64,000 nucleotides of DNA from Dehalococcoidia bacterium (lineage in GTDB: Bacteria > Chloroflexota > Dehalococcoidia > Lucifugimonadales > UBA3495), in assembly GCA_965208015.1 (NCBI GenBank), contig OZ242309.1, forward strand, positions 800,247 through 864,246. Reading direction: 5' to 3'. This document shows, one piece after another, positions 903-63,228 of this stretch. How positions within the stretch are numbered: position 1 is the first letter of the stretch; each line of letters starts with the position of its first letter. A program made the position numbers and the translations under genes. The notes beneath the pieces were generated by a model, which was not told the origin of the DNA, searched no databases, and saw only the letters and a program-made list of their open reading frames with translations.

Positions 903-2537
903 TCAGATCTGCCCGGCGCCCCTGGCGCGGGAATCCAGGCTCACCGCCAATCGGGACCGGAACGGGCGCACCCGGTTGTCCTGGTGCGGTACGCCCATGG
1001 GCACCACGAAAACCGCTTCCTGGCCAGCAGCATGAGGGCCGAAGAACTCGACCACCGCATCGTCAAAGAAAGTGAGTCCGGTGGCTCCCAGCCCCAGCGC
1101 GTGCGAGGCCAGGTAGATACGGCCACCGATGATACCGGCCACGGTCTGCGCCATCCGATATCCTCGTGGACCGAATTTCTGCTCGATCAACGGCAGGTCG
1201 GCGGTAATGAACGCTACAGCCGCAGCGTCGGCTGGAAGCGCTTGCTCGAAGCCCAGATGACCGGCCGTTTCCCGGAAATCGCCTTCCTTGAGTAACCGCA
1301 GTCCGTTGTAGAAACGGTTGTAATAATAGGCTCCGGGGGCGAGGCCGGTAACCGCGTTCACTATCAGATAGACGCTCAAATACGGTGAGAACCCGTCTGC
1401 CAGGTGCGGAGCGTTGATCGGGTTTCCTGCGGCGTCAACGATGGAGCGAAAATCCTCCCACGCGATCGGTTCGGTGGCGAATCGCCGAGTGGAGCCCCGG
1501 GAACGGATGCACTCGCCCAGCGATTGCGCCGGCCGCGCCGCAAGGTTCAACTCCCCGTCAAAGCTGCCGTCCGGACCCGAGCGCAAGGGTCTAAAACCCT
1601 CGCCGGTGCCGTCGAGTTCGTCCTTATCACTGCCGCGGCCCCGGCCCCCGGAACCGTTCCAGGCTGCAACTTCCTCCCCGTTCTTCAACCAGGACGCCAG
1701 GTGAATCTCACGAGACAGCGGATACTCCAGCGCCCCGGCTGCAAGTTCGTTGCTTTCCTGGGGCAACATCCCGGGAACGTCGCCGGAACCAGGGTTCAGC
1801 ATCCCGTCGGGACTGCCGATCGTCGCCAGCAGCGAAGGCGCTTCCTCTAACCCGTCGATCCCGATGTACCCGGTGAGGGAGCGATCCACAAATCCGAATT
1901 TGAGGCCAACCGAAGTACTTGTAGCGTTTCCAGCCGCAGTGAGATTGGCGGCTATAGTGCCCAGATCCCAGTAGCAATACCGGTAGCCCCGCTCCCGATA
2001 TTTCCAGGCGCTCCTCCAAAACACGGTGGTGAACACCAGGGTAGCCGGGTACGCGGCATGGTCCTGCGCGGCCGCACCCACCCAGCGCCGCAGGTCTCCG
2101 TTGCGCAGGCGCGCCAGCGTGAAATTCAGCGGATCGAAGTGGTAAACCCCGGCTCGCAGGCCTTCCAGGTCGCCGCAGACGACGTACACTTCGGTCGGAT
2201 AAAGCGCCCCCGCGGACGCCGCCGCTCTATAGTGAACCTCGCCGTCCTGCAACGTTCGTCGCCGGATCACCGCCGCCGCGTGGTAGAGCAGCTCAGCCAA
2301 GGTCTGCAAAGTCGGCGGATCTTCCGAAACGGGACCCTGTCCGTCTCCTTGGATCGATCGCAAAGTCGACATATCCAGATTGGATGTCGAGGCCACGTCG
2401 GGCAGTGTGATCGCCCGCAGCCCAGGATAGGTCTTGTACAGCGGCGGCTTATTGCTCAGGTTGATGTATTGAAGCTTGGTCGTCTCGTTGAACGTGGTCG
2501 CCACGCCGGCGCCGTCGGATGTCTGGTTAGTAACCAT
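903..2537 (-). CDS. SagB/ThcOx-type dehydrogenase (double nitroreductase fold)
   Basis: Motif YRAAASAGALYPTEVYVV is typical of SagB-type dehydrogenase domains, and a second nitroreductase-like half is present (RSTRRF..., GAYYYN..., GLGATGLTFFDD). ATG at 2537 (MVTNQTS) is preferred over the track start at 2669, which would overlap folB. Confidence 0.7.
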   Translation of the reverse strand: MVTNQTSDGAGVATTFNETTKLQYINLSNKPPLYKTYPGLRAITLPDVASTSNLDMSTLRSIQGDGQGPVSEDPPTLQTLAELLYHAAAVIRRRTLQDGEVHYRAAASAGALYPTEVYVVCGDLEGLRAGVYHFDPLNFTLARLRNGDLRRWVGAAAQDHAAYPATLVFTTVFWRSAWKYRERGYRYCYWDLGTIAANLTAAGNATSTSVGLKFGFVDRSLTGYIGIDGLEEAPSLLATIGSPDGMLNPGSGDVPGMLPQESNELAAGALEYPLSREIHLASWLKNGEEVAAWNGSGGRGRGSDKDELDGTGEGFRPLRSGPDGSFDGELNLAARPAQSLGECIRSRGSTRRFATEPIAWEDFRSIVDAAGNPINAPHLADGFSPYLSVYLIVNAVTGLAPGAYYYNRFYNGLRLLKEGDFRETAGHLGFEQALPADAAAVAFITADLPLIEQKFGPRGYRMAQTVAGIIGGRIYLASHALGLGATGLTFFDDAVVEFFGPHAAGQEAVFVVPMGVPHQDNRVRPFRSRLAVSLDSRARGAGQI

Positions 2538-2571
2538 GTTTTGCTGTCCTGTTAGGGTGGGCCCAGACCGG

Positions 2572-2961
2572 TCAACGCGAGCGCGGCCGGCAGATTTCCA
2601 CCGCCGCGGCCTCGATGACCGAGCCCTTGATCGGCGGACGGGGTTTTTGAACTCGGACGCGAACCGCATCGATTTGTGGATGCTGTTCCAGTACTCTGCT
2701 GGCGATGGTTCCGGCCGCGGCTTCCAGCAGGTTGCAGGGCTCGCCTTCCATCACCGCTTTGACCGCCCGGTACAGTTCCGTGTAACTCACCGTGTCATCC
2801 AATCGGTCGGAGGCCGCCGGGCCGCTCAGATCCAGTTCAGCCTCGAGATCCACGACGAATGTCTGACCTAAGCTGCGCTCTTCGGGGTTGACCCCGTGGA
2901 AGCCGTAGAACTGGAGGCCGGTCAGGATGATGCGGTCTGACGACATCAGATAGGCGCTCAA
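2572..2961 (-). CDS. folB: dihydroneopterin aldolase
   Basis: RIILTGLQFYGFHGVNPEERSLGQTFVVDLEAELDL matches the FolB N-terminal signature. Start is either TTG 2961 (4-nt overlap with the upstream gene) or ATG 2946. Confidence 0.8.
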   Translation of the reverse strand: MSAYLMSSDRIILTGLQFYGFHGVNPEERSLGQTFVVDLEAELDLSGPAASDRLDDTVSYTELYRAVKAVMEGEPCNLLEAAAGTIASRVLEQHPQIDAVRVRVQKPRPPIKGSVIEAAAVEICRPRSR

Positions 2962-6807: not shown

Positions 6808-7125
6808 ATGCCCGTTTATGAATACCGATGCAACGGCTGTGGCGAGCGGCAGTCGCGCCTGATATTCAGTTGGACACCGTCCGATTCCCTCATCTGCAAT
6901 AGCTGCGACGGCATCGACTTGACCCGGCTGGTGTCCGGGTTCTCCTTCCACCGCTCCTGGGGTGACAGCCTGAACTGGATGCCCGACAACGCTGCCGCGG
7001 ACCTGGACAACAGCCACATCGGCAGCATCGACTCGCACATGGGTCGCATGGGCGAGGCAATGGGCGGGCAGGTTACCCCGGAATTCCACGAGCACCGGCA
7101 CGAAATTATCCACCCCGATTCCTGA
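6808..7125 (+). CDS. FmdB-family zinc-ribbon protein
   Basis: N-terminus MPVYEYRCNGCG...(17 aa)...CNSCDG matches the CxxC_CxxC FmdB-type putative regulatory zinc ribbon. Confidence 0.75.
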   Translation: MPVYEYRCNGCGERQSRLIFSWTPSDSLICNSCDGIDLTRLVSGFSFHRSWGDSLNWMPDNAAADLDNSHIGSIDSHMGRMGEAMGGQVTPEFHEHRHEIIHPDS

Positions 7126-7185: not shown

Positions 7186-7521
7186 ATGCCCATCTACGAA
7201 TACCGTTGCCATCAGTGCCGGCAGATCTCCTCGATCTTCGTGCGCTCGATCAGTTCCCCCTTGACGCCGAAGTGCCAGGCTTGCGGCAGCGACGACATGG
7301 AGCGCCGCATGTCCACATTTGCCATGGGTAAAACCACCGGCGAAATCCATAGCGCGCACCCCATGGGCAGCAATTCGCGAGACTACTACAGCGACCCGCG
7401 CAACATCGGGCGCCACGTGGAAGAGTCTTTCGCTCGCCACGGTGTCGACATGCCCGCTTCGGTTCGTGAATCCATCGATTCCGCTCGCAGCGGCGACGCG
7501 CCCAAAGGATTGGACCTGTGA
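7186..7521 (+). CDS. FmdB-family zinc-ribbon protein (tandem paralogue)
   Basis: MPIYEYRCHQCR...(17 aa)...CQACGS. The stop overlaps the thiE GTG start (GTGA). Confidence 0.75.
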   Translation: MPIYEYRCHQCRQISSIFVRSISSPLTPKCQACGSDDMERRMSTFAMGKTTGEIHSAHPMGSNSRDYYSDPRNIGRHVEESFARHGVDMPASVRESIDSARSGDAPKGLDL

Positions 7522-8506: not shown

Positions 8507-9139
8507 ATGCCCACTCGCTATGGGCCACATCTGACCGCTCTTTCCAACAAAGCGGTTGAAGAACTCACCGCCAGGCATCGCGCTCGGGAGCAGGCTCTCG
8601 GTGTGTCCCGACAGGTTATCAGGAACTCGGCCAACGCCATCCGCGCCGTGCACCGCAACGATTTCGCAGAGGCGCGTCGCCTGATTGCCGAAGCGGCGAC
8701 CCGGCTGGACGAAACCCGGAGCATTCGCGTCGACAACCCGGAGATTTACTACGCCGGGTTTCTGTCTGATGCGCGCAAGGAGTTCACTGAGGCGAACATA
8801 ACGTTAGCGGTGATTTCCGGGGCCGAAATACCCGACGCCGAGTCCCTCAACATGGATCCGCCGGCCTACCTGAACGGCATGGCGGAGGTGATCGGCGAAT
8901 TGCGCCGTTACATCCTGGACGCCCTGCGCCGCGACGATACCTCCCGGTGCGAAGAGCTGATGGAGTTGATGGACGAGATTTACGGCATCCTGGTTACCGT
9001 CGATTTCCCCGAAGCCGTCACCGGCGGCCTGCGCCACAGCACGGACGCCATGCGTGGCGTCCTGGAGCGCACCCGAGGCGACCTGACGATTTCCCTTCAG
9101 CAGCGCCGTCTGGAACGGCGCCTCGAAAACCTCACCTAG
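8507..9139 (+). CDS. translin-family protein
   Basis: ARKEFTEA, AYLNGMAEVIGELRRYILDAL and GLRHSTDAMRGVLERTRGDL match the conserved helices of translin/TRAX-like proteins (COG2178-type). This assignment is from memory. Confidence 0.65.
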   Translation: MPTRYGPHLTALSNKAVEELTARHRAREQALGVSRQVIRNSANAIRAVHRNDFAEARRLIAEAATRLDETRSIRVDNPEIYYAGFLSDARKEFTEANITLAVISGAEIPDAESLNMDPPAYLNGMAEVIGELRRYILDALRRDDTSRCEELMELMDEIYGILVTVDFPEAVTGGLRHSTDAMRGVLERTRGDLTISLQQRRLERRLENLT

Positions 9140-9157
9140 CCCGTTTTTAGTCGGTGT

Positions 9158-9940
9158 ATGGCGGTGGTTTCGCCGCCTGGCCAAAACCATCGAGCGCTCT
9201 CAGTGAGGATAGCCGGCCCAACCGTGATAACCGCCCGTTGGCGCGATATTGCGATCCTCTCCTGGCCGGTTGACGACTATATTCTGGCGCCCTTCTTGCC
9301 TACAGGCTTGGATATCGATCATTGGCGAGGCGACGCCTACATCAGTCTGGTATGCCTGTTTATGGAAAACGTCAGGGCATTGGGCTTGCCGGCTCTCCCC
9401 CGCCGCTTCGCGGAGGTGAACCTCAGGTTCTACGTGCGGTTCGCGCATCAAGCCGAAGAACGCCAGGGCGTAGTGTTCCTGAGACAACTGGTTTCCAGCC
9501 CATTTGTCGCCTTCGCCGGACGCTTCGTTTTCTGGGAACCGATGCTCAAATCGGCAGTGTCCCATCAGTTTGCGACGACGGATTCTCCCATCGGCCCCGG
9601 CCAGCGCCGTTTGCATTACCGCTGGCTGAACGGCGGCCGCGACGAAGGATTGCGGCTCACTGCCGCCGGCGACGCTTACCTTGCTGAGCCCGGCTCGCTG
9701 GACGAATTCCTCACCGACCGGCACTGGGGCTTCAACGCCCAATCCGACCGCCGAGTTCGAGCGTACCGAATTTCCAGGGAGCCGTGGCCACTGGTCCCCG
9801 CCTTTGAGCACGAATTACAGTGCGACGTCAGAACCCTCGGCGGACCGCGTATGGCGAATTTCGTCGCTGGTCTTCCGGCATCTGTCTTGTGGGCGGTGGG
9901 TTCCGATACCCGGATACATTGGCCGACCAAGTTGAGATAA
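9158..9940 (+). CDS. DUF2071 (YqjF-like) domain protein
   Basis: WRDIAILSWPVDDYILAPFLPTGLDIDHWRGDAYISLVCLFMENVR resembles the DUF2071 N-terminal signature. Assignment is from memory. Confidence 0.55.
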   Translation: MAVVSPPGQNHRALSVRIAGPTVITARWRDIAILSWPVDDYILAPFLPTGLDIDHWRGDAYISLVCLFMENVRALGLPALPRRFAEVNLRFYVRFAHQAEERQGVVFLRQLVSSPFVAFAGRFVFWEPMLKSAVSHQFATTDSPIGPGQRRLHYRWLNGGRDEGLRLTAAGDAYLAEPGSLDEFLTDRHWGFNAQSDRRVRAYRISREPWPLVPAFEHELQCDVRTLGGPRMANFVAGLPASVLWAVGSDTRIHWPTKLR

Positions 9941-10012
9941 ACGATTAGCCGTTGTTAGAATGCTCTATCGCAGCCGGTTCCCCGGAGTGTGGATCGGCAA
10001 GGCAGGGTTTGA

Positions 10013-11050
10013 GTGGTTGAAGCAACGCCGCGAGCGGCCGTACATACGATCCCCGACTCTCTGGACGCCATTGAAGAGTGCTACCGGCGCGGCTGGACCG
10101 ACGGCCTCCCCGTGGTTCCTCCCACCGCCGACCGGGTCCAGGCGATGCTGGAAGCGGTCGGCCTGGACCCGGACCACGTGCTGGGAGAAGTCCCGGTGCG
10201 GCGCAGGACCTTGACCGCTGAGCAGGCCGCGGCCAACGCGGTGATGGCCGGCTGTCTGCCATCTTATTTCCCCGTTGTTCTGGCGACAATGCGGGTGCTG
10301 TTCGAACACGACCCCAATTGCATCCATGAAGTTTCGGCAGTCACCAATTCCACCGGCTTGCTGGTGGCGGTCAACGGTCCAATCCGGCGCCAGATCGACT
10401 TGAACTGTACCGACAACCTGTTCAGTCCCGGCCATCGCGCCAACTCCACCATCGGTCGAGCGTTGCGGCTGATCTTGATCAACGTGTTTGAACAGCGACC
10501 CGGCCTTTTGGATCGCGGCTGCATGGGCAGCTTGACCAAGTTTGGCGTGGTCATCGGCGAAGACGAGGAGAACAGCCCGTGGGAACCGTTCCACGTCAGC
10601 CAGGGCTACTCGCCGGAACAGTCGACGGTCACGGTGGCAACCATTCAGGACCCTTCCATGCACAGTAACCGCTACGGAACCACCGCCGAGAGCCTTCTGG
10701 ACTCCATCGCGGACGGGATGGCCTCCCACGGGTTGGCCTCGTACTTCGGGCGGAACATAAAATGGGTTTGGGTGATCGGCTACTGGCACTCCGAGCTGCT
10801 GAGCCGCTTCGGCTGGACCCGCCCCGATATGCAACAGTACCTGTACGAGCGCGCGTGGCGGTCTACCGGGGAATTGAAGAGGCTCGGCATGGTGCACGGC
10901 GCTGTACAGCCGGGGGATGACGATCTGCGGCGCATGAGTATAGACGGACCCGAAGACATTCTGATATTCAAGGCCGGTGGCGACAGCGGCATGTACAGCG
11001 AACTGATCATGAACTACTACGGTGTGCCCGCAGTCACCACGGTGATTTAG
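10013..11050 (+). CDS. conserved hypothetical protein (GWTDGLPVVPPT motif)
   Basis: 345-aa ORF with globular-looking composition and a GTG start. The long antisense ORF 9965..10897 is Arg/Gly/Pro-rich and judged spurious. Family not recognised. Confidence 0.6.
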   Translation: MVEATPRAAVHTIPDSLDAIEECYRRGWTDGLPVVPPTADRVQAMLEAVGLDPDHVLGEVPVRRRTLTAEQAAANAVMAGCLPSYFPVVLATMRVLFEHDPNCIHEVSAVTNSTGLLVAVNGPIRRQIDLNCTDNLFSPGHRANSTIGRALRLILINVFEQRPGLLDRGCMGSLTKFGVVIGEDEENSPWEPFHVSQGYSPEQSTVTVATIQDPSMHSNRYGTTAESLLDSIADGMASHGLASYFGRNIKWVWVIGYWHSELLSRFGWTRPDMQQYLYERAWRSTGELKRLGMVHGAVQPGDDDLRRMSIDGPEDILIFKAGGDSGMYSELIMNYYGVPAVTTVI

Positions 11051-11082
11051 CGTAAGCGCACCGAATCCTTAAAGGAGTTTTC

Positions 11083-11655
11083 ATGGCCTCCCAAGCAATT
11101 CCCACCGTGCAGTTGATCGACCCCACGGGATTTGATCCCGGAGAGGAATCAATGATCATGGCGGCCCGTCCCATCGACCTGCGTGGCGGACGACTGGGCC
11201 TGCTCGACAATTCCAAGGCCAATGCGGACGCGATCCTCTGGTCCATCGCCAACGCCCTGAATGAAGAGTTCGAGTTTGCCGACATCTTCTATGCGCGCAA
11301 GCACAGCTCGTCGCTGCCGCCCCATCCGGAGGTCCTCGCCGACCTCCACCGCAATGCGGACTTCGTCATCGCCGGTGTGGGGGATTGAGGGGGATGCTCG
11401 TCGGGCAGTTTGCACGATGGAATTACACTGGAACGCCAGGGCATCCCGGCGGCGACCATCATCACCACTGTGTTCGCCAACACCGCCCGTGCGTATACTC
11501 GCCTCATGGGCGTGCCGAATTTCCCGTATCTCATGTGCGCCCACCCTATCGGCAGAGCCACCAGTGAGGAGCTTCAGTCGCGCGCTCGGCTGCTGACCCC
11601 GGCGGTGCGCCACCTGCTGATCAACGGGGAACTTGCGGGACCTCAAGCCGCATGA
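11083..11655 (+). CDS. candidate selenoprotein, UGSC-like family (in-frame TGA at 11386..11388 read as Sec)
   Basis: ORFs 11083..11388 and 11410..11655 share one frame with no other stop between them. TGA sits in VIAGVGD-U-GGCSS (U-x-x-C). Strong RBS AAAGGAG lies 5 nt before ATG 11083. The downstream half has only a TTG and no RBS. Confidence 0.65.
11399..11419 (+). promoter_or_regulatory. candidate bacterial SECIS hairpin
   Basis: CGTCGGGCA-GTT-TGCACGATG gives a 9-bp stem with one G.A mismatch and an apical loop starting with G about 20 nt after the UGA. Outer pairing GGGATGC 11391..11397 with GCATCCC 11441..11447. Folded by eye only. Confidence 0.35.
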
Positions 11656-11671
11656 ACCTGCGGAGCTGAAC

Positions 11672-13489
11672 ATGCCTGGTATTGGGGACATATTCCGCAG
11701 GATTACTCAGCGCTCACGAGCGCCGGAGCCAGAGTCGGCTGAAACGTACGATACCGGAACGGATTTGCCGCCGCCAGATCCTGCTGATTTGGCACCTCCC
11801 GAACCGCTCGCGTGGGAGCCCGAAGATGGAGGTTCTGCGCTGGCTTCTGCCCCGGAATCGGACGACCAGCGGTTCGCGTCGCCCGATCGACCGGCATCAT
11901 CCCAGGCGGCGTTTGATGATCGACCGCCCCGTGAAACCCTGGTTTCTCCTTCGCTCGAACCTCAGGTGAGTTTTGCGACTGACACGCGAGATGACAGCAA
12001 TGTCAGCATACTTGATCCTCCCGTTGTTGAAGTTGGAGACGACGTCCTGGTCGATGATCCCCTGGTGTTGGCCTGTCCGTATTGCGGGGCGGAAGGCCAA
12101 CGGGTCGGGTCCCGCTGCGCCAATGAGAGATGCAACCGGGTGATCGTGCGGCTGCCGCCCTGGGCGCAGCACCGGCGGCACAATTGGTTCACACGACGCA
12201 TTTCGTGGCGCCGTGTTGTCATGGCTTGCATCGCGGCGCTCCTGATCGTATTCGTAATTTGGGTCAATTACCCGTTTGCGCCTGACCCGGTGGTGTTGTT
12301 CAAAAAGACTCAGACCCAGTTGACCATAGACGCCGGTCCCGGTTCGTGGACCGGCGTTGGCAGAGACCTCAGACACAGTCGTCGGGTGGACATTGGACCG
12401 CCGCCGCCTTCAGGTCAGATCAGGTACTGGAACTTCGACGTTCCCGGCGACCCGTTGCTGTCCGAACCTGTCGCACAGGACACGCACGTTTACATAGGTT
12501 CGTCCAAAGGCATGTACGCGTTATCCCACGCGGACCTGTCCTTGATCGAAAAATGGGAAGGTGACACGCCAGGTCGGATAACAGCCGGCGCCGCGGTGAT
12601 CGGCTTGTATCTATTCTTCGGGAGTACAGACCATACCGTCAGTTCATGGAACGCATTTGACGGCCAGGTGCGCTGGAGCTTTCCCGCCGCTGACACGGTT
12701 GAAACCGCCCCCGTGGTTTCGGATGGACTGGTGTACATCAGCTCAGGGGAGAGTTGGATCTATGCTCTGGATGCCCACACTGGGGCGTTGATCTGGAAAG
12801 AGCAGTTGGACAGCAACGCCAGTGACGCTGCTACCATTCACGACGGCAAGCTGTTCGTTGGCGACGAAAAAGGCGTGTTCTACATTTTATCCGCCCGGAC
12901 CGGCCAAGAATGGTTCCGTTTCCGAACCCCGCGAGCCATCAGCGGTTCGCCCGTGGTTTCTGAAGATGGGGAACGCGCGTATTTCAGCGCGGGTGGCCAG
13001 TTGTACGCCGTGGAAGCGACCCGCCGGGAAATACCAGGTCTTTATCAGTTCAAACAGTTGTGGGCTCAGCTCTGGCTCTGGCAAGTACCTGGAGTTCCAC
13101 GTCCCAAGGGTCAGCAAGGGGGACTATGGCGGTTCACGCCCGAAAACCCTCTTCAGGGAGTCAAGAGCAGCCCCGCACTGGTCGACCACGAAAACGGCGG
13201 CACGTTATACGCCGGGGGCCACGACAACAATGTCTATGCTTTAGACGCCATAACCGGCGATCCCCTGTGGACTTTCCACACGGAGAATGCCGTGTGGGCT
13301 TCTCCCCTCGTAATCAAGGACCACCTGATCGTTGGCGACGAGTCCGGTTTCTTGTACTCGTTGGACCGATTGACTGGGCACGAGAACTGGAGCATGAACC
13401 TGGGGGCTCCCATCAAGATCCCGCCGATAGTGAGCAACGGGTTGCTGATCGTGCGCACCGCCGACGGAAACGTATACGGCATCGAATAG
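11672..13489 (+). CDS. membrane-anchored PQQ-like beta-propeller repeat protein with cytoplasmic zinc ribbon
   Basis: Disordered acidic/Pro-rich N-terminus, CPYCG...CANERC zinc ribbon and one TM segment (VVMACIAALLIVFVIWV). These are followed by repeated YALDAxTGxxxW blades typical of BamB/PQQ-like propellers. ATG 11672 has GGAG upstream. Confidence 0.7.
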   Translation: MPGIGDIFRRITQRSRAPEPESAETYDTGTDLPPPDPADLAPPEPLAWEPEDGGSALASAPESDDQRFASPDRPASSQAAFDDRPPRETLVSPSLEPQVSFATDTRDDSNVSILDPPVVEVGDDVLVDDPLVLACPYCGAEGQRVGSRCANERCNRVIVRLPPWAQHRRHNWFTRRISWRRVVMACIAALLIVFVIWVNYPFAPDPVVLFKKTQTQLTIDAGPGSWTGVGRDLRHSRRVDIGPPPPSGQIRYWNFDVPGDPLLSEPVAQDTHVYIGSSKGMYALSHADLSLIEKWEGDTPGRITAGAAVIGLYLFFGSTDHTVSSWNAFDGQVRWSFPAADTVETAPVVSDGLVYISSGESWIYALDAHTGALIWKEQLDSNASDAATIHDGKLFVGDEKGVFYILSARTGQEWFRFRTPRAISGSPVVSEDGERAYFSAGGQLYAVEATRREIPGLYQFKQLWAQLWLWQVPGVPRPKGQQGGLWRFTPENPLQGVKSSPALVDHENGGTLYAGGHDNNVYALDAITGDPLWTFHTENAVWASPLVIKDHLIVGDESGFLYSLDRLTGHENWSMNLGAPIKIPPIVSNGLLIVRTADGNVYGIE

Positions 13490-13513
13490 CGCATTGCCCA
13501 AGCCACTGATGAA

Positions 13514-13546
13514 AACGCCCCTGGCCAAGCAGTGACCAGGGGCGTT
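13514..13546. terminator. perfect 11-bp hairpin between convergent genes
   Basis: AACGCCCCTGG / CCAGGGGCGTT with an 11-nt loop, between the stop at 13489 (+) and the stop at 13572 (-). No clear U tract. Confidence 0.5.
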
Positions 13547-13571
13547 CGCCATTATATTCGGAAGCGGTCGG

Positions 13572-14552
13572 TTAGTAGAGGTGGCACGAAACCCGGTGAC
13601 CCGGAGATACCTCTTTCTCGACTGGCGCCTCTTCCGAGCACTGGGGCATTGCGAAGGGGCAGCGCGGGTGGAACCGGCAGCCGCTGGGCGGGTTGATCGG
13701 TGACGGAACCTCACCCTGCAGCACGATGTCTTCCCGAATTAGGTCCGGGTGCGAAGGCAGCGCAGCGGAGAAGAGCGCCTTGGTGTAAGGATGCAGCGCG
13801 TTGTTGTAAAGCTCCTCGGTCTCGGCATATTCGACGATTTGCCCTAGGTACATCACCGCCGTTTGATGCGCCATGTAACGCACCGTTGCCAAGTTGTGCG
13901 CGATGAGCAGGTAGCTGACGTTGTACTGTTCTTGCAGGTCTTTGAGAAGATTCATGACCTGTGCGCGAATGGACACGTCGAGCGCGGATACCGGCTCGTC
14001 CAGGACGATCAGCTTGGGGTACGACACCAATGCGGAGGCGACTGCGATCCTCTGCCTCTGGCCTCCACTGAACTCGTGGGGATAGTTGTTGGCCTGCTGG
14101 GAGTGCAAACCGACCTGTGCCAGCACCTCGGCAACTCGGTCGTTTTTCTCCTGGGTGGTCACGTTGCGGTTAACCACCAGCGGCTCGGAAACGATATCGC
14201 GAACCCGCATTCGGGGGCTGAGCGAAGACCACGGATCCTGGAAAACCGCTTGCACGGTGGTTCGGTATTCCTGGAGTTGGGAGCCTCGGAAAGTGTTGAT
14301 GTCCTCGCCATCAAGCAGGATTTCGCCATCGGTGGGCGTTTCCAGGCGCAGCAGAAGTTTGCTGGTGGTGGTCTTGCCGCAACCCGATTCACCCACCAGG
14401 CCCAGGGTTTCCCCTTGTTTGATGGTGAAGGATATCCCGTCCACGGCCTGAACGTATCCGATGGTCTTCATCAAAATCAGACCCTTGGTGACCGGAAAAT
14501 ATTTCTTCAGGCCGGTGACTTCCAGAAGGTTATTGTCAGTAGCGACTGCCAT
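13572..14552 (-). CDS. peptide/nickel-type ABC transporter ATP-binding protein (OppF/DppF-like)
   Basis: Walker [10 protein letters not shown], signature FSGGQRQR, Walker [13 protein letters not shown] and a C-terminal oligopeptide-type extension with CRFHPRCP. Confidence 0.9.
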
Positions 14553-29393: not shown

Positions 29394-30542
29394 TCAGCCG
29401 GCGCAGTCGGCGACGAGTTCGTCGATCATCTCCCGGCTGACGTGCGGCATGGTGATAATGTGGGCGATGTCACCTTCAGGGGCCATCTGCCACTTGCGGA
29501 ACACTTCCCGGCGCGGGCGCGGGAACACCACCGTAACCGAGTTCCGGTGCCGCCAAGCGGATATCCCGCGCTCGTTGAACTGCCCCACCGCATATTCCGC
29601 CGTGTCCAGCATTCCGGCGACGACATCGCGAAACCCTCCATGTCCGCGCTGGGCAAAAGCGTACCAGATCATCAGCGGGGCCAGCGCGTTGCGGGAACCG
29701 GACAGGGTTGTGTCTTCAACGCCCACGTACTCGATGGCGCGACCCACCCGTTCCACGTAGGGACGCTTGGTCAGCACCACGCCGCAGGGCAGGGGCGCGC
29801 CGATCAGTTTGTGCCCGCTTACCGAAACGCTGTCTACGCCGGCGTCAAAGCCGTAGGGCTGAGGGTCGTCGACGAATGGCAGGATCATGCCGCTGAGTGC
29901 GGCGTCGGCGTGGATGTAATGGCTGGTCACCGCCTGGTCACTCAGGATGTCCCGTATCCGGCCGATGTCGTCCACCGCGCCGCGCATGGTGGTGCCCACG
30001 TTGGCCATGATCACGGCGGGCAGGTCACGATTGACCCGGATCATCGCTTCCAGGTCATCGTAGTCGATTTCACCATTTTCCTGCCGCCTGATCATGATGT
30101 GGCGGGCGTTCAGCACCCGCACGTTTTTTAGCACGCTGTAGTGCGTTTCTTCCGAGAAGTAGAACATTGCGTTGGGGAACAGCTCCCGTGCCAGGTACAG
30201 ACCGTACATGTTGCCTTCGGTGCCGCCGGAAGTCACGTAACCCCAGGCATCCTCCGGCGCGAGGCGCATCAATCCGGCGAAAATATCGATGACCTCTCGC
30301 TCGATTTCGTGGGTATTGCCCCAGAAATTGCTCGGGTAGAAGGGGTCACCGACATTGTTGATTGAGTAGTCCAGGAAGGGCACCAGAGGGGAGTAGTCGA
30401 AGTCCTGATTCACTGGATAACCAATTTGTTGCCGCGTGGCAGAGTGAATATCGCTCAACAACTGATCCAGCCGTTTTTGGATTTCCGGTTGTGGCAAAGC
30501 CTCTGGCATCGATGTGGTGGTTGACGCTAACACGTTGGACAT
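29394..30542 (-). CDS. PLP-dependent histidine decarboxylase-like (group II) decarboxylase
   Basis: Collinear with Gram-negative Hdc as recalled: INNVGDP, WGYVTSGGTEGNMYG, HADAALSGMILPFVDD and the PLP lysine in SVSGHKLIGAPLPCG. ATG 30542 (MSNVLAS). Confidence 0.8.
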   Translation of the reverse strand: MSNVLASTTTSMPEALPQPEIQKRLDQLLSDIHSATRQQIGYPVNQDFDYSPLVPFLDYSINNVGDPFYPSNFWGNTHEIEREVIDIFAGLMRLAPEDAWGYVTSGGTEGNMYGLYLARELFPNAMFYFSEETHYSVLKNVRVLNARHIMIRRQENGEIDYDDLEAMIRVNRDLPAVIMANVGTTMRGAVDDIGRIRDILSDQAVTSHYIHADAALSGMILPFVDDPQPYGFDAGVDSVSVSGHKLIGAPLPCGVVLTKRPYVERVGRAIEYVGVEDTTLSGSRNALAPLMIWYAFAQRGHGGFRDVVAGMLDTAEYAVGQFNERGISAWRHRNSVTVVFPRPRREVFRKWQMAPEGDIAHIITMPHVSREMIDELVADCAG

Positions 30543-30875
30543 AATCCTGGCTCCAATGGTGAACGGCCCGTTGCGATGGTCTTCTTGCGGGCGGGGCCGG
30601 CAGTCTCTCAGTTGCCCGGCGGACGAGATAGCCACTCTGCGTATCCGATCCGGAGTGACGTTGCTGGGTCCGTTGCCGGTCGCCGGTTAGGGTAGTGAAG
30701 ATGAGCCCAAACCGCAATGTGGGATGCAGCCCCACGGATTCCACGTGAAGGGACCTTGCCTTGCATCAAAGGCAATGTTCGTAATCGGTCGACCATGTCG
30801 GGTTGCACTGAGCGCGGACGTCGGCAATAGCGTTAGCGGGCGCACAATTCCCAGGGACAGGTATTCAGTTAACAA

Positions 30876-34771: not shown

Positions 34772-36871
34772 ATGGCCGGTTACCGCAAGCATGAAGCGCA
34801 GGAATGGGCCTGGCAAACCTTGAAGGGGCAATGGACCACGCTGGTCACGCCCTTCACGCCGGACAACCAGGTGGACACTGATGGCCTCCGCCGGAACATT
34901 CGTCATGTCCAGAGCTTGGGCGTGCGCGGCGGCGGTTGCACCTGGAACATGGGCGAATTCTGGAGCCTGACCGAAGGCGAGCGTCGCCTGGTGATGGACA
35001 CGGTGGCCGACGAAGCCGCCGGTCATTGGCTCATCGGCGCGCACGTGACCGACACCTCACTGCGGGAAAGCATTGCGCTGGCCCAGCACGCCGAACGCCG
35101 GGGCTTCGACCTGTTGATCATTGCTCCCTCATACATGGTGACCAAGACTGAAGACCAGGTGGTCGACTTCGTGCGCCAGGTGGCCGAAAACACTGAGCTG
35201 GCGATGATGTTTTACAACTCGCCCCAGTTCGGCATCACCATCAGTCCGCAGGGCTTGAAGCGGCTCTGCGCCATCCCCAACGTCGTCGGCGTCAAAGAAG
35301 CAAGCTTCAATCAGCAAATCTCCATTGAAACCCACCTCCTGGTGGGCCGCGACGCGGTCATCAGCACACCGGACGAGTGGATATTCCACAAGGCCAAGGA
35401 ACTGGGCTTCCACCAGCAGGTGATGTTCGCCAACACCTCCGACTGGCGGTTCGACACCCCCCGGCATAACTACTACACCCAGTTCATCGACCGGGCCACC
35501 GCCGGCAACCTCGATGTGGACTTCTACAACCACTATTTGAAGGACATCAAGGCGCTGTCCGACAAGTGGTGGGGCGGCACCATGAAAAAAACCGGCGGCG
35601 CTCTCCCCGTGGCCATGTGCAAGGCTTGGGGCGAAATGATGGGCATGGCCGGTGGAAGCGTCCGCGCGCCGCTGCATGACCTTACTCACGAGGAGAAGGT
35701 CGAGCTGTGGAGCGAGCTGGAACCCCTGCTCCCACGGGCCGCAGCACCGGCCGCTCCGGCGCGGGAAGTGATCCACGGGCGCCCACATGCCCCCTGGCTC
35801 AACGGCAACGGCGCGCGCGATGGGCGGAGCGGCCTTTCCGAGTCAGGCATGATGCTGCTGGTGAGCGCCCAGAACCGGGCCGAGGCACTGGAAGCCGACC
35901 GGGGCGGCGCCGACATCATCGACCTGAAGAACCTCCAGGAAGCCCTGGTGGGATCAGCACATCCCAGCCTGGTCCGGGAAGTGCGGGAGCTCATCTCCCC
36001 CGAAAAGCACGTCAGCGTTACCCTCGGCGTCGTGCCCAACCAGCCGGGCACCGTCGCGATGGCGGTCCACGCCGCTGCCTTGATGGACGCGACCTCAGTT
36101 AAAGTCGGCTTCCAGGTTGCGGATTACGAAACCGCCGTTGAGGTGCTGCGGGAGTCCCGAGCGGCCATCGGCAACGCCGAGACCAAGCTGATCGGTTCGC
36201 TGTTCGCCGACAACCTGCTCTTCGAGGGCGGTCTCGATCCCCACCTGATGGGCCAGTTGGCCATCGACGGCGAGTGCGACGGCTTCTTGATCGACACTCT
36301 CACCAAGGACGGGCGGAACCTGTTCGACTTCATGCCGGAACCCGTGTTACGGGACATGGTGATGGAGGCCAAGCAGGCCGGCCTGAGCACCGCGCTGAGC
36401 GGTCACCTCAAGCTGGAGAACCTGGACGAGTTGGCACGCATCAACCCCGACATCGTCGGTGTCCGCGGTGCCGTGTGCTCCAGCGGCGAGCGAGACCGCG
36501 CCGTGGCCTGGGAAGCTGTAGCCTACTTCAAGGAGCAGCTGGATCTTCGCAAGACCGGCGTGATCGACGTGCGCGCTCCCGTGGGTGTTGCCGCCACCGG
36601 GAATGGCTACGGCAACGGAAATGGTCATGGAAACGGTTGGACTGTGATCGATGGTCGCGGTAAGAACTGCGCCGGCGTCATCGCCGCTTTGAGTCGCCAG
36701 ATGGAGTACGACCGCGCTTCCTTCGTCGAGGCCATCCTCCACGACGCCCTGAACATCTACGACGTAATCTACTGGGCTGAACAGGCCGGACATCGTCTGT
36801 TGACCCAGCGCAAAGAAAACGACGGTACACTCAGGGTGCTGATCGAGCCCTACGGCAACGGCAACCACTGA
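34772..36871 (+). CDS. tri-domain fusion: DapA-like class I aldolase + MfnB-like (5-formylfuran-3-yl)methyl phosphate synthase + TusA-like domain
   Basis: aa 1-320: DHDPS-family motifs (MFYNSPQF, Schiff-base-type VVGVKEAS). aa 360-595: collinear with MfnB as recalled (LLVSA...GGADIIDLKN, PGTV, VKVG, DTLTKDGRNLFD, PDIVGVRGAVC). aa 623-693: TusA/SirA-like (IDGRGKNCAGVIAAL...DGTLRVLIE). One uninterrupted ORF with GGAGG RBS. Confidence 0.8.
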   Translation: MAGYRKHEAQEWAWQTLKGQWTTLVTPFTPDNQVDTDGLRRNIRHVQSLGVRGGGCTWNMGEFWSLTEGERRLVMDTVADEAAGHWLIGAHVTDTSLRESIALAQHAERRGFDLLIIAPSYMVTKTEDQVVDFVRQVAENTELAMMFYNSPQFGITISPQGLKRLCAIPNVVGVKEASFNQQISIETHLLVGRDAVISTPDEWIFHKAKELGFHQQVMFANTSDWRFDTPRHNYYTQFIDRATAGNLDVDFYNHYLKDIKALSDKWWGGTMKKTGGALPVAMCKAWGEMMGMAGGSVRAPLHDLTHEEKVELWSELEPLLPRAAAPAAPAREVIHGRPHAPWLNGNGARDGRSGLSESGMMLLVSAQNRAEALEADRGGADIIDLKNLQEALVGSAHPSLVREVRELISPEKHVSVTLGVVPNQPGTVAMAVHAAALMDATSVKVGFQVADYETAVEVLRESRAAIGNAETKLIGSLFADNLLFEGGLDPHLMGQLAIDGECDGFLIDTLTKDGRNLFDFMPEPVLRDMVMEAKQAGLSTALSGHLKLENLDELARINPDIVGVRGAVCSSGERDRAVAWEAVAYFKEQLDLRKTGVIDVRAPVGVAATGNGYGNGNGHGNGWTVIDGRGKNCAGVIAALSRQMEYDRASFVEAILHDALNIYDVIYWAEQAGHRLLTQRKENDGTLRVLIEPYGNGNH

Positions 36872-59769: not shown

Positions 59770-61425
59770 TTATTCCTCACTCAGGGGTTCCAAGTCTGCC
59801 GTCGTGCGCAAGCCCGCGGTACGGTTCCCCCGACTGCGGCGCCGCAGCTGCACGATGGCCACGATGACGATGATGATTACTACAACGATGACGGCAACGA
59901 TCACCCCAATGATGATCCACATCTCTGCGTCAGAATACTTTGTAGATACCGATACCTGGAGCCTGGCGTCCGGAGCGTCGGCAGCGGGATTTTGGCCCAG
60001 CGCGCTGTAATTCCAACGCTGGATCTCGGCCAGGCCGCCGCCGTATTCCATGATGTCCCTCAAGTCTGAGGACTTCACCACGAGAGCCATGTCCATAGTG
60101 ACGAATTCGTCCTGGTCACTTCTGGTTTCGTTCCAACTGTCCACGTATCCGCCCAGCGATTCGACCCTCTCCCTGATCTGCTCGGCGACGGACAGCGGAT
60201 CGGAGGCCGATAGGTACAAGGATGCCTCCAGGTCCACGTTGGATCGAATGGCCAGCGTGAAACGGGCATTGGACACCTCGTTGAGTGGCGCCGGTCCTAC
60301 CGAGGTTAACTGCCGGCCCGACGCCGCCCCCAAGGTTGCTGCGTAATCCATCAATGGAGCCAGGTCAGCGGGCTTGACGAATACGATCAAATCGACCGCG
60401 CGCCCCTCACCTGCATCGTATGAACGCTTCTGGCCTACGTAACCGTCCAGTGCGCTAACCCGGGCAACAACGGCATCGGCCACGGCGGACGGATCACCCG
60501 TGGTGAGCTCCAGATTGCCCACCGGAGGATCGGCAGCGTACTGCGCGGGCAATCGCAGGTTGACCGTGATAAGAGAAGTGGCGACGCGGCCGGTCAGATC
60601 CCGCTGAGTGGCTTCGACGTGCTCAATGTCGGAACGAACCTCTGCGATGCGCTGCTCGATCTGGATGATGTCCTCAACAGTGGGCGCGTTTTCGAGCAAC
60701 GTGACCAGGCGTTCTTCCTGGGCGTACCAGGCGGTGAGGCGAGCCTGATTATCGATGAGACGCTCGGTCACATCCGTTGACGAAACCCCCTCGTCAGTAA
60801 CGCGCCCCATGGCCCGCAGTGAATCCAGGCCGTTGTTCAGTCGGTCGGCGGGGACTCGGATGCGCACGGTGGCCGAGCGGTAGCCGGCCTCACCGTATAC
60901 TTCGGCCGACTCAACCCAGCCGCCGCTCTGAGCCGCCAAAGTCTCCACCTGTCGCACCGAGGCGTCGATGTTCGCCACCTCAAGGCTCATCCACGACTCG
61001 ACAATCAGCTGACGGGCGGATTGCGGCTGGGCCGGTTGCGTGGACCCGCCGCTCGCCCGGCGAGCGGCGGGTGCGGCCGGCGCCGATTGCTGCTGCGCGG
61101 CTTGTGGGACCGCCGTAGGCACAGCTGCTGCGGCCATTGGGACGACAGCCGCCGGTGTGGCCGCAAATCCCTGCCGTCTATCGGATCGTGCCGAACCGTC
61201 TGTCCCGGCCGGACCGGGTGCGCCTTGCGGGCCGGCTACGCCCGGCGGGCCGGACTCTTGCCGCACCGATTCCGGTTCGGAGTTGGAGTCTTCGGCATGT
61301 TGCGCGGCCGGCGCGGCGGGTGCCATCGCTGGAGCACTCTCCGCCCCGCCGCAGGCAAGCGCCAACGCGGCCATGACCAGCATCAGTGTGGGCAACCAGA
61401 TCTTCTTGAGATTAAGGATACGCAT
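59770..61425 (-). CDS. DUF4349-like lipoprotein with extra repeated modules and C-terminal TM anchor
   Basis: MRILNLKK... with lipobox LACGG and an Ala/Pro-rich linker. The DUF4349-like core follows (SWMSLEVANIDASVRQVETLAAQSGGWVE...coiled coil), then two further copies of the alpha/beta module and the TM segment MWIIIGVIVAVIVVVIIIVIVAIV. AAGGGGGAG RBS. Confidence 0.7.
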   Translation of the reverse strand: MRILNLKKIWLPTLMLVMAALALACGGAESAPAMAPAAPAAQHAEDSNSEPESVRQESGPPGVAGPQGAPGPAGTDGSARSDRRQGFAATPAAVVPMAAAAVPTAVPQAAQQQSAPAAPAARRASGGSTQPAQPQSARQLIVESWMSLEVANIDASVRQVETLAAQSGGWVESAEVYGEAGYRSATVRIRVPADRLNNGLDSLRAMGRVTDEGVSSTDVTERLIDNQARLTAWYAQEERLVTLLENAPTVEDIIQIEQRIAEVRSDIEHVEATQRDLTGRVATSLITVNLRLPAQYAADPPVGNLELTTGDPSAVADAVVARVSALDGYVGQKRSYDAGEGRAVDLIVFVKPADLAPLMDYAATLGAASGRQLTSVGPAPLNEVSNARFTLAIRSNVDLEASLYLSASDPLSVAEQIRERVESLGGYVDSWNETRSDQDEFVTMDMALVVKSSDLRDIMEYGGGLAEIQRWNYSALGQNPAADAPDARLQVSVSTKYSDAEMWIIIGVIVAVIVVVIIIVIVAIVQLRRRSRGNRTAGLRTTADLEPLSEE

Positions 61426-61499
61426 GTCGGGCTCCCCCTTTCGGCTGCCCATGATACGCAAAGGCGCGATGATTGGTTTGCGAGGCGGGCCGGCGGGTA

Positions 61500-61508
61500 T
61501 GCTACAAT
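61500..61508 (+). promoter_or_regulatory. extended -10 TGCTACAAT upstream of tRNA-Pro
   Basis: Same 9-mer as at 6790..6798. It ends 12 nt before the tRNA 5' end. Confidence 0.4.
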
Positions 61509-61519
61509 CTGAATATAGT

Positions 61520-61595
61520 CGGGGTGTAGCGCAGTGGCTAGCGCGCCACGTTCGGGACGTGGAGGTCGGTGGTTCGAATCCACTCACCCCGACCA
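61520..61595 (+). tRNA. tRNA-Pro (anticodon CGG), CCA encoded
   Basis: Hand-folded cloverleaf: acceptor CGGGGTG/CACCCCG, D arm GCGC-AGTGGCTA-GCGC, anticodon arm CCACG-TTCGGGA-CGTGG (CGG, G37), variable AGGTC, T arm GGTGG-TTCGAAT-CCACT, discriminator A, CCA. Confidence 0.9.
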
Positions 61596-61623
61596 TTATT
61601 TTTGCCCGAACAGGAGGGTTGCG

Positions 61624-63228
61624 ATGGCGCGCCGCAGTTTCTGGGCTTGGGGAATGGAGGACCGGGAATCGTCGCCAGCGGACTATGCGGCGATGGCCGA
61701 GCGGATACACCGCAGGTACGGCGTGTCGCTTCCAGCACCGACGCCGCCCACCGACGCCGACCTCAACCTCCGCAAGCCCCGCTTCACGCCGCATCCTCTG
61801 GTCGCCGATTTTTGCAGCATGGACGACCATGACCGTGCGGCGCACACCTACGGGCGCAGCTTCCGGGACCGGATCCGCGGCTTTAACTGCGAGTTTCCCA
61901 ATCCGCCGGACGTGATCGCCTATCCGCGTACCGAGGAAGAGGTGATCCGGGTGCTGGACTGGTGCGTGAACTCCAACATCGTGGCCATCCCCTACGGCGG
62001 CGGCAGCACGGTTGTCGCCGGGGTCGAGCCGCCGGAAGCGGACAAGGTCTGCACCATCGACCTTACCCGTTTGGGCCAGGTGCTGGAGGTGGACGAAACC
62101 TCGCGGGCGGCCCGGATCCAGGCTGGCGTGCTGGGGCCGGCGCTGGAGGCGCAACTGCGTCCCCACGGTTACACGCTCCGCCACTTTCCGCAGAGTTTCG
62201 AGTTCTCGACGCTGGGCGGATGGATCGCCACCCGCAGCGGCGGCCACTACGCCACCAACCACACTCACATCGACGATTTCGTGGAGTCGGTGCGAATGGT
62301 CACGCCGGCCGGATTGTGGGAGTCGCGGCGGCTGCCGGGCAGCGGCGCCGGGCCCTCGCCCGACCGCATGGTGATCGGAAGCGAGGGTATCCTGGGTATC
62401 ATCACCGAAGCGTGGATGCGGATACAGGCCCGTCCGCGGTTCCGGGCTTCCGCCGGCGTGGTCTTCGACGGCATGCACGCCGCATCCGAGGGAGCTCGGT
62501 TGATTGCACAGGCCAAGCAGTGGCCGGCCAACCTGAGGATGCTGGACCCGTCGGAAGCCGAAGACTTCGCGGGCTTGGACGGCCAACAAGCGCTCTTGAT
62601 CATCGGGTTCGAGTCGGCGGAGATACCGCAAGGCGAGAACATTCGGCAGGCGGTGGCCATTGCCAGGGACGCCGGTGGAACCATCAACGAGGATGACATC
62701 GTGGTGGCCGACGCTGCCGAGCGGTCAACATCGTCGGCCGGCCGCCAGGGAGCCGTAGGGAACTGGCGGGATTCGTTCATCAATGCGCCCTACGAAAGAA
62801 ACGCGACCATTGGCTTCGGCATCGTCGCCGAGACGCTGGAAACGTCTATCACCTGGGAGCGTTGGCCGGCAATGGACGAAATGGTGCGCGGAGCGTTGCA
62901 AGAAGCGCTGCAACAGACCTGCGGAGGAGGGCGCGTGTCGTGTCGCTTTACGCACGTCTACCCGGACGGGCCGGCGCCCTACTACACCTTCGAGGGTCTG
63001 GGCCAAGTGGGTGGTGAGCTGGAGGCCCATGCCGAGATCAAGCAGGCGGCGTCGGACGCCGTCATGGCCGCCGGCGGCACGATCACACACCACCACGCGG
63101 TGGGACGGACCCACCGGCCGTGGTATGACGAGCAGCGACCCGACCCGTTCGCCGAAGCGTTGCGGGCGATCAAGCGGTCGGTGGACCCCAACGGAATACT
63201 GAACCCGGGCGTCTTGATCAATCCCTAA
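61624..63228 (+). CDS. FAD-linked oxidase (PCMH-type; alkyl-DHAP synthase/GlcD-like)
   Basis: MARRSFWAWGMED N-terminus, FAD-binding region (VAIPYGGGSTVVAG, LEVDETSRAARIQAGV) and a C-terminal HHHAVG motif. ATG 61624 has AGGAGGG upstream. The track start at 61534 would overlap the tRNA. Confidence 0.8.
   Translation: MARRSFWAWGMEDRESSPADYAAMAERIHRRYGVSLPAPTPPTDADLNLRKPRFTPHPLVADFCSMDDHDRAAHTYGRSFRDRIRGFNCEFPNPPDVIAYPRTEEEVIRVLDWCVNSNIVAIPYGGGSTVVAGVEPPEADKVCTIDLTRLGQVLEVDETSRAARIQAGVLGPALEAQLRPHGYTLRHFPQSFEFSTLGGWIATRSGGHYATNHTHIDDFVESVRMVTPAGLWESRRLPGSGAGPSPDRMVIGSEGILGIITEAWMRIQARPRFRASAGVVFDGMHAASEGARLIAQAKQWPANLRMLDPSEAEDFAGLDGQQALLIIGFESAEIPQGENIRQAVAIARDAGGTINEDDIVVADAAERSTSSAGRQGAVGNWRDSFINAPYERNATIGFGIVAETLETSITWERWPAMDEMVRGALQEALQQTCGGGRVSCRFTHVYPDGPAPYYTFEGLGQVGGELEAHAEIKQAASDAVMAAGGTITHHHAVGRTHRPWYDEQRPDPFAEALRAIKRSVDPNGILNPGVLINP

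Follow-up and report, generated by a model that had tools for sequence, protein, structure and literature searches.

A highly probable UGSC-family selenoprotein gene with an in-frame UGA codon and a conserved upstream partner gene in a Dehalococcoidia bacterium

We analyzed a 64,000-nucleotide (nt) stretch of DNA from a Dehalococcoidia bacterium (Bacteria; Chloroflexota; Dehalococcoidia; Lucifugimonadales; UBA3495; GenBank assembly GCA_965208015.1, contig OZ242309.1, positions 800,247 to 864,246 of the forward strand), here called the window. Positions 11083..11655 of its forward strand very probably constitute a single gene that encodes a UGSC-family selenoprotein of 190 residues, in which the TGA at 11386..11388 would be decoded as selenocysteine (Sec). 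A candidate selenoprotein with an in-frame Sec TGA had been proposed at this site in a sequence-only reading of the window; the proposal is supported by a family match, by the conservation of the TGA, by a column in which Sec aligns with Cys, and by a covarying hairpin, and this comparative evidence strongly supports the decoding of the UGA as Sec. The UGSC-containing protein is a computationally predicted selenoprotein family described by Zhang and Gladyshev from the Sargasso Sea and Global Ocean Sampling (GOS) selenoproteomes. In the GOS data it ranked fifth in abundance among selenoprotein families (255 Sec forms and 21 Cys forms), was graded as "likely Trx-like" (i.e., thioredoxin-like), and was noted to occur in fusion with a domain designated "Unknown_1" (PMC2398784). 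The family ranks among the most abundant aquatic selenoproteins, and reviews from 2022 and 2026 still give its function as uncharacterized. It has been known since 2005–2008, and the window gene is an unannotated member of this known, curated family. What goes beyond published accounts is the upstream partner module, the flavodoxin-like fold, and a weak but consistent similarity to selenoprotein B around the Sec residue.

The gene (190 codons, with Sec at codon 101 and a true stop TGA at 11653-11655) was delineated from its read-through translation, hidden Markov model (HMM) scores, and substitution pattern. An upstream open reading frame (ORF; 11083..11388) starts with an ATG that is preceded at a distance of 5 nt by the Shine-Dalgarno sequence AAAGGAG (11071..11077, forward strand), and it closes at the TGA at 11386-11388, past which the frame remains open for 88 further codons. 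The downstream ORF (11410..11655) shares this frame, and the 21 nt between the two ORFs are free of stops. Reading through the TGA gives a product of 190 amino acids (aa), ...NADFVIAGVGD-U-GGCSSGSLHDGITLERQGIPAATIITTVF..., in which the residues around Sec are ...VIAGVGD-U-GGC-SSGSLHDGITLERQGIPAATIIT... (i.e., the UGA opens a U-G-G-C redox motif). Downstream of the TGA, the sole start codon is the TTG at 11410, which lacks a ribosome-binding site (RBS) and lies inside conserved sequence. The sequence-only reading had pointed to this arrangement, including the shared frame, the strong upstream RBS, the bare TTG of the downstream half, and the UGGC motif, and direct inspection of the sequence bore it out on each count.

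With U read as C, the 190-aa product scored 130.8 bits against the NCBIfam model NF041046, "UGSC family (seleno)protein" (curated cutoff, 125), and 173.3 bits against the Pfam model PF24696, "UGSC" (curated cutoff, 25). Because both cutoffs are passed, the family that the sequence-only reading had named both exists and fits. The length of the product lies within that of the single domain of approximately 180 to 200 residues that spans both sides of Sec, and the window protein shares with the known family this length and the position of the U-x-x-C motif. The conserved column carries U/C-G-x-C throughout, as UGGC, UGSC, or UGAC in relatives and as CGSC in Cys forms; the window protein differs from the known family in having U-G-G-C instead of U-G-S-C. 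The strong bias toward Sec over Cys is common to both (255:21 in GOS; approximately 132:13 among the representatives in the present analysis), as is fusion with an unknown domain, which was noted in the GOS paper and recurs in our data. The host, which belongs to a marine or sponge-type Dehalococcoidia lineage, sets the window gene apart, and so does the modeled fold, which is flavodoxin-like and not "likely Trx-like" as proposed in 2008.

We compared six metagenomic and 80 genome loci at the DNA level; together they comprise 91 gene copies (84 retrieved by pattern matching and 7 that the pattern had missed). All 91 copies have TGA at the Sec codon, followed by an open, conserved frame. Their hosts include Dehalococcoidia, other Chloroflexota, Entotheonella, Binatia, Rokubacteria/Methylomirabilota, Tectomicrobia, a betaproteobacterium, and Ktedonobacteraceae. 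At this gene, the nearest public sequence (CBDBMT010000003.1) is 99% identical to the window. Of the ten closest database proteins, nine have lengths of 105 to 123 aa and end in ...G(V/I)GD just before the TGA, and all 85 matches to the C-terminal half are fragments of 64 to 96 aa; gene callers therefore split this gene systematically. Homologs that end at the TGA, which the sequence-only reading had named as a finding that would speak against Sec, are accordingly a gene-caller artifact, since in their DNA the frame runs on past the TGA and encodes conserved protein sequence. The practical value of the result is one of annotation correction, as public data nearly always divide the gene into two "hypothetical" ORFs. 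The only apparently full-length match of the first search (P0010; 194 aa) was rejected as a Cys form because it is a frameshifted prediction; its N-terminal 75 and last approximately 22 residues are in frame and its middle is out of frame, and it could be mistaken for a Sec-less form.

When 1.84 billion cluster representatives were searched with a profile built from the N-terminal half, 1,383 relatives were recovered. Among the best 150 of these, approximately 132 are cut exactly before U and 13 are full-length proteins with C-G-S-C, so that the aligned column holds either Sec or Cys, which is the kind of column that the sequence-only reading had called for. The full-length Cys forms were included in the alignment (MAFFT) to bridge the N- and C-terminal fragments. 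The codon immediately 5' of the UGA (window positions 11383-11385) is GAT in 72 of 72 main-clade sequences, although the genome strongly favors G or C at third positions; this invariance suggests a context requirement immediately 5' of the Sec codon.

Substitutions, counted as differences from the window sequence at 74 loci, were distributed over codon positions 1, 2, and 3 as 921, 754, and 2,591 after the TGA and as 928, 450, and 2,055 before it, and synonymous changes exceeded nonsynonymous ones on both sides, equally so after the TGA as before it. By this pattern, the sequence after the TGA evolves like translated coding DNA under purifying selection in the same frame. Were the TGA a true stop, the locus would be a pseudogene or a pair of small genes (101 and 81 aa) into which no Sec is inserted; public gene callers annotate exactly these two ORFs, and no Sec machinery is visible within the window. 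Such an arrangement is very improbable given that 91 copies over several phyla are all interrupted at one and the same codon, unlike a decaying pseudogene, and that the downstream piece, which evolves under purifying selection in the same frame, would have to begin without an RBS at a TTG inside conserved sequence. In addition, the Cys forms are single polypeptides, and the AlphaFold2 (AF2) model forms one domain across both halves.

The UGA is followed, after a 10-nt spacer, by a hairpin at 11399..11419 on the forward strand (CGUCG-G-GCA-[GUU]-UGC-A-CGAUG), whose stem of nine pairs contains a single G.A mismatch and is capped by a GUU triloop. Its minimum-free-energy (MFE) fold, covariation, and synonymous constraint support its designation as the core of a putative bacterial Sec insertion sequence (SECIS) element. 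The hairpin is the MFE fold of 11386-11425, and its loop G (11408) lies 19 nt past the A of the UGA; a G-first triloop about 20 nt after the UGA had been noted in the sequence-only reading. Pairing in the inner helix amounts to 88.5% over a set of 27 diverse sequences, and four of the nine pairs are changed on both sides. The covariation score of the whole structure in this set was 0.183, compared with 0.097 for shuffles (0 of 500 shuffles reached it), and registers in which the hairpin was slid were only 30 to 50% paired. Codons +4 to +11 after the UGA (TCG TCG GGC AGT TTG CAC GAC GGA) have a third-position entropy of 0 to 0.36 bits in 72 distinct main-clade sequences, compared with 1.1 to 1.8 bits for most flanking codons, which is a constraint at the RNA level, placed exactly over the hairpin. 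Divergent paralogs have stems that differ in sequence yet pair, with a G-U-N loop (e.g., CGUCGUGGA-GUG-UCCACGACG, UCGAGCA-GUG-UGCUCGA, and CAUGCA-GUG-UGCAUG). An outer stem that the sequence-only reading had added (11391..11397 with 11441..11447) does pair in the window but is only 62% paired across the 27 relatives, and we rejected it as a conserved feature.

With its 10-nt spacer and a loop G that follows the UGA by 19 nt, the hairpin has a geometry that agrees with the bacterial SECIS model: a 3' stem-loop places its apical-loop G at the proper distance and is conserved as a structure, as in selenoprotein genes. It shares with the Escherichia coli fdhF-type SECIS a small size, a location within coding sequence directly 3' of the UGA, a spacer of approximately 10 to 11 nt ahead of the upper stem, and a G in the first position of the apical loop. 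It differs from that element in its loop, which is a GUN triloop, and in having an internal G.A mismatch instead of the bulged U of fdhF. The hairpin would recruit SelB carrying Sec-tRNA(Sec) to the ribosome, as is generally the case in bacterial Sec insertion, and UGA 11386 would then be decoded as Sec.

Of the 49 likely genes in the window, 28 end in TGA, which makes it the most frequent ordinary stop there; the stops at 7521 and 28102, which the sequence-only reading had cited as such, are among them, and TGA is not reassigned in the window. Other TGA-terminated ORFs that are followed by a long in-frame coding stretch were considered and rejected, as they are simply neighboring genes in the same frame. 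A component of the Sec machinery was found in relatives. In two related Dehalococcoidia chromosomes (L050 and L072), selD lies within a few kilobases (kb) of the UGSC locus (L050, 2768-3802, reverse strand; L072, 9971-10909, reverse strand). The selD of these relatives scores 396 bits against TIGR00476 (cutoff, 125). Both genes are predicted to encode Sec themselves, with an in-frame TGA at the active site (HCAG-U-AAK, corresponding to GAG-C-GCK in E. coli), and in L050 this TGA is followed by a 7-bp hairpin with a GUG loop (GGACCUG-GUG-CAGGUCC) and selD is divergently oriented from the partner-UGSC module described below. Dehalococcoidia metagenome-assembled genomes (MAGs) with 46 to 49 selenoproteins are among the richest bacteria in a 2026 database paper (PMC13326102). 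Because relatives carry a Sec-containing SelD and Dehalococcoidia are rich in selenoproteins, Sec decoding is well supported for the lineage and would extend to the window genome.

Other results weigh against the assignment of Sec to this codon. Neither selA, selB, selD, nor a tRNA-Sec gene occurs within the 64-kb window, in which the only tRNA gene is one for tRNA-Pro, and no tRNA-Sec was found in approximately 1 Mb of related loci. A scan with Rfam at gathering thresholds returned only the tRNA-Pro and nothing at the hairpin. The folding energy of the hairpin region is unremarkable (z = -0.9 for 40 nt and -1.3 for 81 nt); as these z-scores are not significant, folding energy is no evidence either way, and an unremarkable value is usual for small bacterial SECIS elements.

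Insertion of another amino acid (e.g., Trp, Cys, or Gly) at the UGA, through near-cognate suppression or a reassigned code, is conceivable in that UGA has been reassigned in some uncultured bacteria. It is scarcely credible here, where TGA terminates 28 of the 49 window ORFs, the column aligns with the redox Cys of a C-x-x-C motif, a conserved, covarying hairpin stands at SECIS distance, and relatives encode SelD. That the TGA is a misread or misassembled TGC or TGT (Cys), which would take a single base and for which Cys forms of the family offer a precedent, has a negligible probability, because the in-frame TGA is carried by more than 80 independent assemblies of different strains, closed long-read chromosomes among them, whose neighboring synonymous sites differ (an outcome that also answers a concern about assembly raised in the sequence-only reading), and because none of the 72 distinct main-clade sequences has a Cys codon at the Sec column.

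The UGSC gene is preceded by a conserved partner gene (10013..11050, forward strand; 345 aa), identified from its homologs, its adjacency, and an AF2 model, which stops 32 nt short of the UGSC start and matches no family in Pfam or NCBIfam. Its own family has at least 7,984 homologs, every one of them unnamed or labeled "hypothetical." The partner protein has the motif GW(T/G)DGLP, and its Cys23, Cys81, Cys132, and several His residues are invariant. In 77 of 85 copies, the gene immediately upstream of UGSC is the partner. In two Rokubacteria/Methylomirabilota loci (L080 and L081), it is fused in frame to the C terminus of UGSC, and in a betaproteobacterium (L083) it is directly downstream of UGSC, either fused or adjacent. 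Since adjacency in 77 of 85 copies is accompanied by fusions in distant phyla, an obligate genomic partnership between UGSC and the upstream gene is strongly supported by these genomic comparisons. The two genes are probably cotranscribed. The "Unknown_1" domain described in the GOS paper probably corresponds to this partner. A sigma-70-like promoter match (TTGAGA-18-TAGAAT, extended TG; 9932..9961, forward strand) stands just upstream of the partner gene and is the only match in 9000-14000; shuffles average 1.2 matches, and the position of this match is suggestive without being significant.

Some relatives contain a further copy of the module. A second, divergent partner-UGSC pair with the motif U-G-S-C-T-A-C occurs in L002 (749-2328, reverse strand) and in L062 (a reverse-strand copy), in each case on a contig shared with a main-type pair, and in L002 it adjoins a gene for a luciferase-like monooxygenase; some genomes therefore hold two paralogous partner-UGSC modules.

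The fold of UGSC was modeled with AF2 on a Cys-form homolog (P0250), which stands in for the window protein. The model (pLDDT, 92.2) is one compact domain of five successive beta-alpha units, with the C-x-x-C motif between strand 3 and the N terminus of helix 3. Foldseek searches against the Protein Data Bank (PDB) returned generic flavodoxin-like domains and lumazine synthase as the best matches (TM-score, ~0.45), and no thioredoxin fold was among the top PDB matches. The mixed four-stranded sheet (beta-alpha-beta-alpha-beta-beta-alpha) of thioredoxin-fold U-x-x-C selenoproteins is likewise absent from the model. According to this model, the UGSC fold is flavodoxin-like and not thioredoxin-like, and the Trx-like suggestion of 2008 is unsupported because the top fold matches are flavodoxin-like and include no thioredoxin fold. 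Searches of PDB by sequence or profile gave nothing for either UGSC or the partner.

The segment around Sec resembles selenoprotein B of the D-proline and glycine reductases. UGSC has the motif U-G-x-C-(14 residues)-G-I-P, which we take to resemble those of PrdB and GrdB. As a query we used a Clostridioides difficile PrdB sequence that was validated by its score of 429 bits over the full length of TIGR04483; metagenomic PrdB genes are 78 to 89% identical to it and have TGA in all 77 cases in which the Sec region was extracted. PrdB matched the UGSC models around Sec with E values of 3.9e-5 (NCBIfam) and 9.5e-4 (Pfam). In the reverse search, five of nine UGSC proteins had weak secondary matches (E = 0.01 to 0.09), almost all of them to GrdB, GrdF, GrdH, or PrdB models; one of the nine also had two weaker, unrelated matches. 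Alignments of UGSC with selenoprotein B in hhalign placed the Sec columns in register (E = 2e-4, probability of 46%; E = 1.1e-3, probability of 20%).

Selenoprotein B (PrdB, GrdB, GrdF, and GrdH; TIGR01918 and PF07355) and UGSC have in common an in-register U-x-x-C within a succession of beta-strand, U-G-x-C, helix, and G-I-P strand, an identical spacing of 18 residues from U to GIP, and a Sec subunit encoded beside a larger partner subunit. They differ in length (190 aa for UGSC compared with 241 to ~435 aa), in the nature of the partner, which in UGSC loci has no detectable similarity to the pyruvoyl proproteins PrdA and GrdE, and in context, there being no grdA, trxB, or prd genes near UGSC. 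PrdB and GrdB have been characterized in amino-acid-fermenting clostridia, whereas the UGSC hosts include Dehalococcoidia, Entotheonella, Binatia, and Rokubacteria/Methylomirabilota MAGs. True homology between UGSC and selenoprotein B is a lead for which, on these sequence comparisons, the chances stand roughly even.

We propose that UGSC folds as a five-unit beta-alpha flavodoxin-like domain in which U101-G-G-C104 would lie between strand 3 and the N terminus of helix 3, as in the Cys-form model, and that U101 and C104 may cycle between the selenol/thiol and selenenylsulfide states. Conserved adjacency and gene fusion indicate that it works with the product of 10013..11050, and the pair may constitute a two-subunit reductase with UGSC as the Sec-bearing catalytic or electron-relay subunit. 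Such a reductase would be analogous to, and possibly distant kin of, the D-proline and glycine reductases' selenoprotein B (PrdB/GrdB). We regard this as the likeliest function of the pair and give it slightly less than an even chance. The fuller statement is doubtful as a whole, namely, that UGSC and its partner are a widespread two-subunit selenoenzyme of Dehalococcoidia, Entotheonella, Binatia, and Rokubacteria/Methylomirabilota that shares ancestry with protein B of the glycine and D-proline reductases of clostridia, that performs a Sec-dependent reductive cleavage or reduction, and that includes a partner fold without a solved relative.

Several findings count against these functional proposals. 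The similarity to selenoprotein B is short (40 to 55 columns) and statistically weak (hhalign probabilities of 20 to 46%); UGSC relatives score 11 to 15 bits against the selenoprotein B models, whose cutoffs are 65 to 800, and the window protein itself has no match to the GrdB and PrdB models. A pyruvoyl proprotein (PrdA/GrdE) and a grd/prd operon context, which accompany selenoprotein B, are missing from the UGSC locus: no grd or prd genes are among the window genes, and a search of 42 partner homologs against Pfam at E <= 10 found no PrdA/GrdE (Gly_reductase) or other family. The AF2 model of the partner, although confident (pLDDT, 85.9; pTM, 0.88), had no significant match among PDB folds, which also speaks against a function like that of the two-subunit selenoprotein B. 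Among individual candidates for the partner fold, class I fumarate hydratase and the "Toblerone" cyanuric acid hydrolase were dismissed as not meaningful (TM-scores of 0.2 to 0.26; E >= 8e-3), and matches to designed TIM barrels were spurious, as one short beta-alpha unit had been counted four times.

The main functional alternative is that UGSC is a stand-alone thiol/selenol-disulfide oxidoreductase similar to thioredoxin or glutaredoxin, with the partner as a substrate or an unrelated protein and with no kinship to selenoprotein B. Such proteins typically have a U-x-x-C motif at the N terminus of a helix, a Trx-like fold was suggested in the GOS paper (PMC2398784), and UGSC resembles selenoprotein B only weakly. 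We consider this alternative, which leaves the identity of the gene as a selenoprotein untouched, possible though somewhat unlikely: the modeled fold is flavodoxin-like and its top matches include no thioredoxin fold, an obligate partnership is indicated by adjacency in 77 of 85 copies together with fusions in distant phyla, and almost all secondary HMM matches are to selenoprotein B models. For a selenoprotein family of this abundance, the obligate partner, the flavodoxin-like fold, and the resemblance of the Sec segment to selenoprotein B are leads on function that together give a testable reductase hypothesis.

The neighborhood of the UGSC locus is ordinary chromosome, with polA, two genes for FmdB-type zinc-ribbon proteins, thiE, a DUF2071 gene, a PQQ-type beta-propeller gene, and a peptide ABC transporter; the only neighbor conserved with UGSC is the 345-aa partner. 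The two FmdB-family genes are in tandem directly upstream of thiE (6808-7125 and 7186-7521, forward strand; CxxC...CxxC), and the second overlaps the start of thiE. The order zinc-ribbon, thiE, DUF2071, partner, and UGSC recurs in L001. Elsewhere in the window, the annotation of which excludes the last 4 kb, a 953-aa ORF (59770-62631, reverse strand) overlaps the tRNA-Pro gene (61520-61595, forward strand) and is either spurious or truly shorter. A 588-aa protein (903-2669, reverse strand) contains two SagB-type (TIGR03605) dehydrogenase domains, which hint at a peptide-maturation or nitroreductase-like function. A gene for a pyridoxal-dependent histidine decarboxylase (29394-30635, reverse strand; NF002748, 478 bits) precedes a small ACT-domain gene that lies in the same frame. 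Finally, a 699-aa ORF (34772-36871, forward strand) fuses DHDPS/DapA-like and 4-HFC-P synthase (MfnB-like; PF04476) domains, a combination that is unusual for a Chloroflexota genome.

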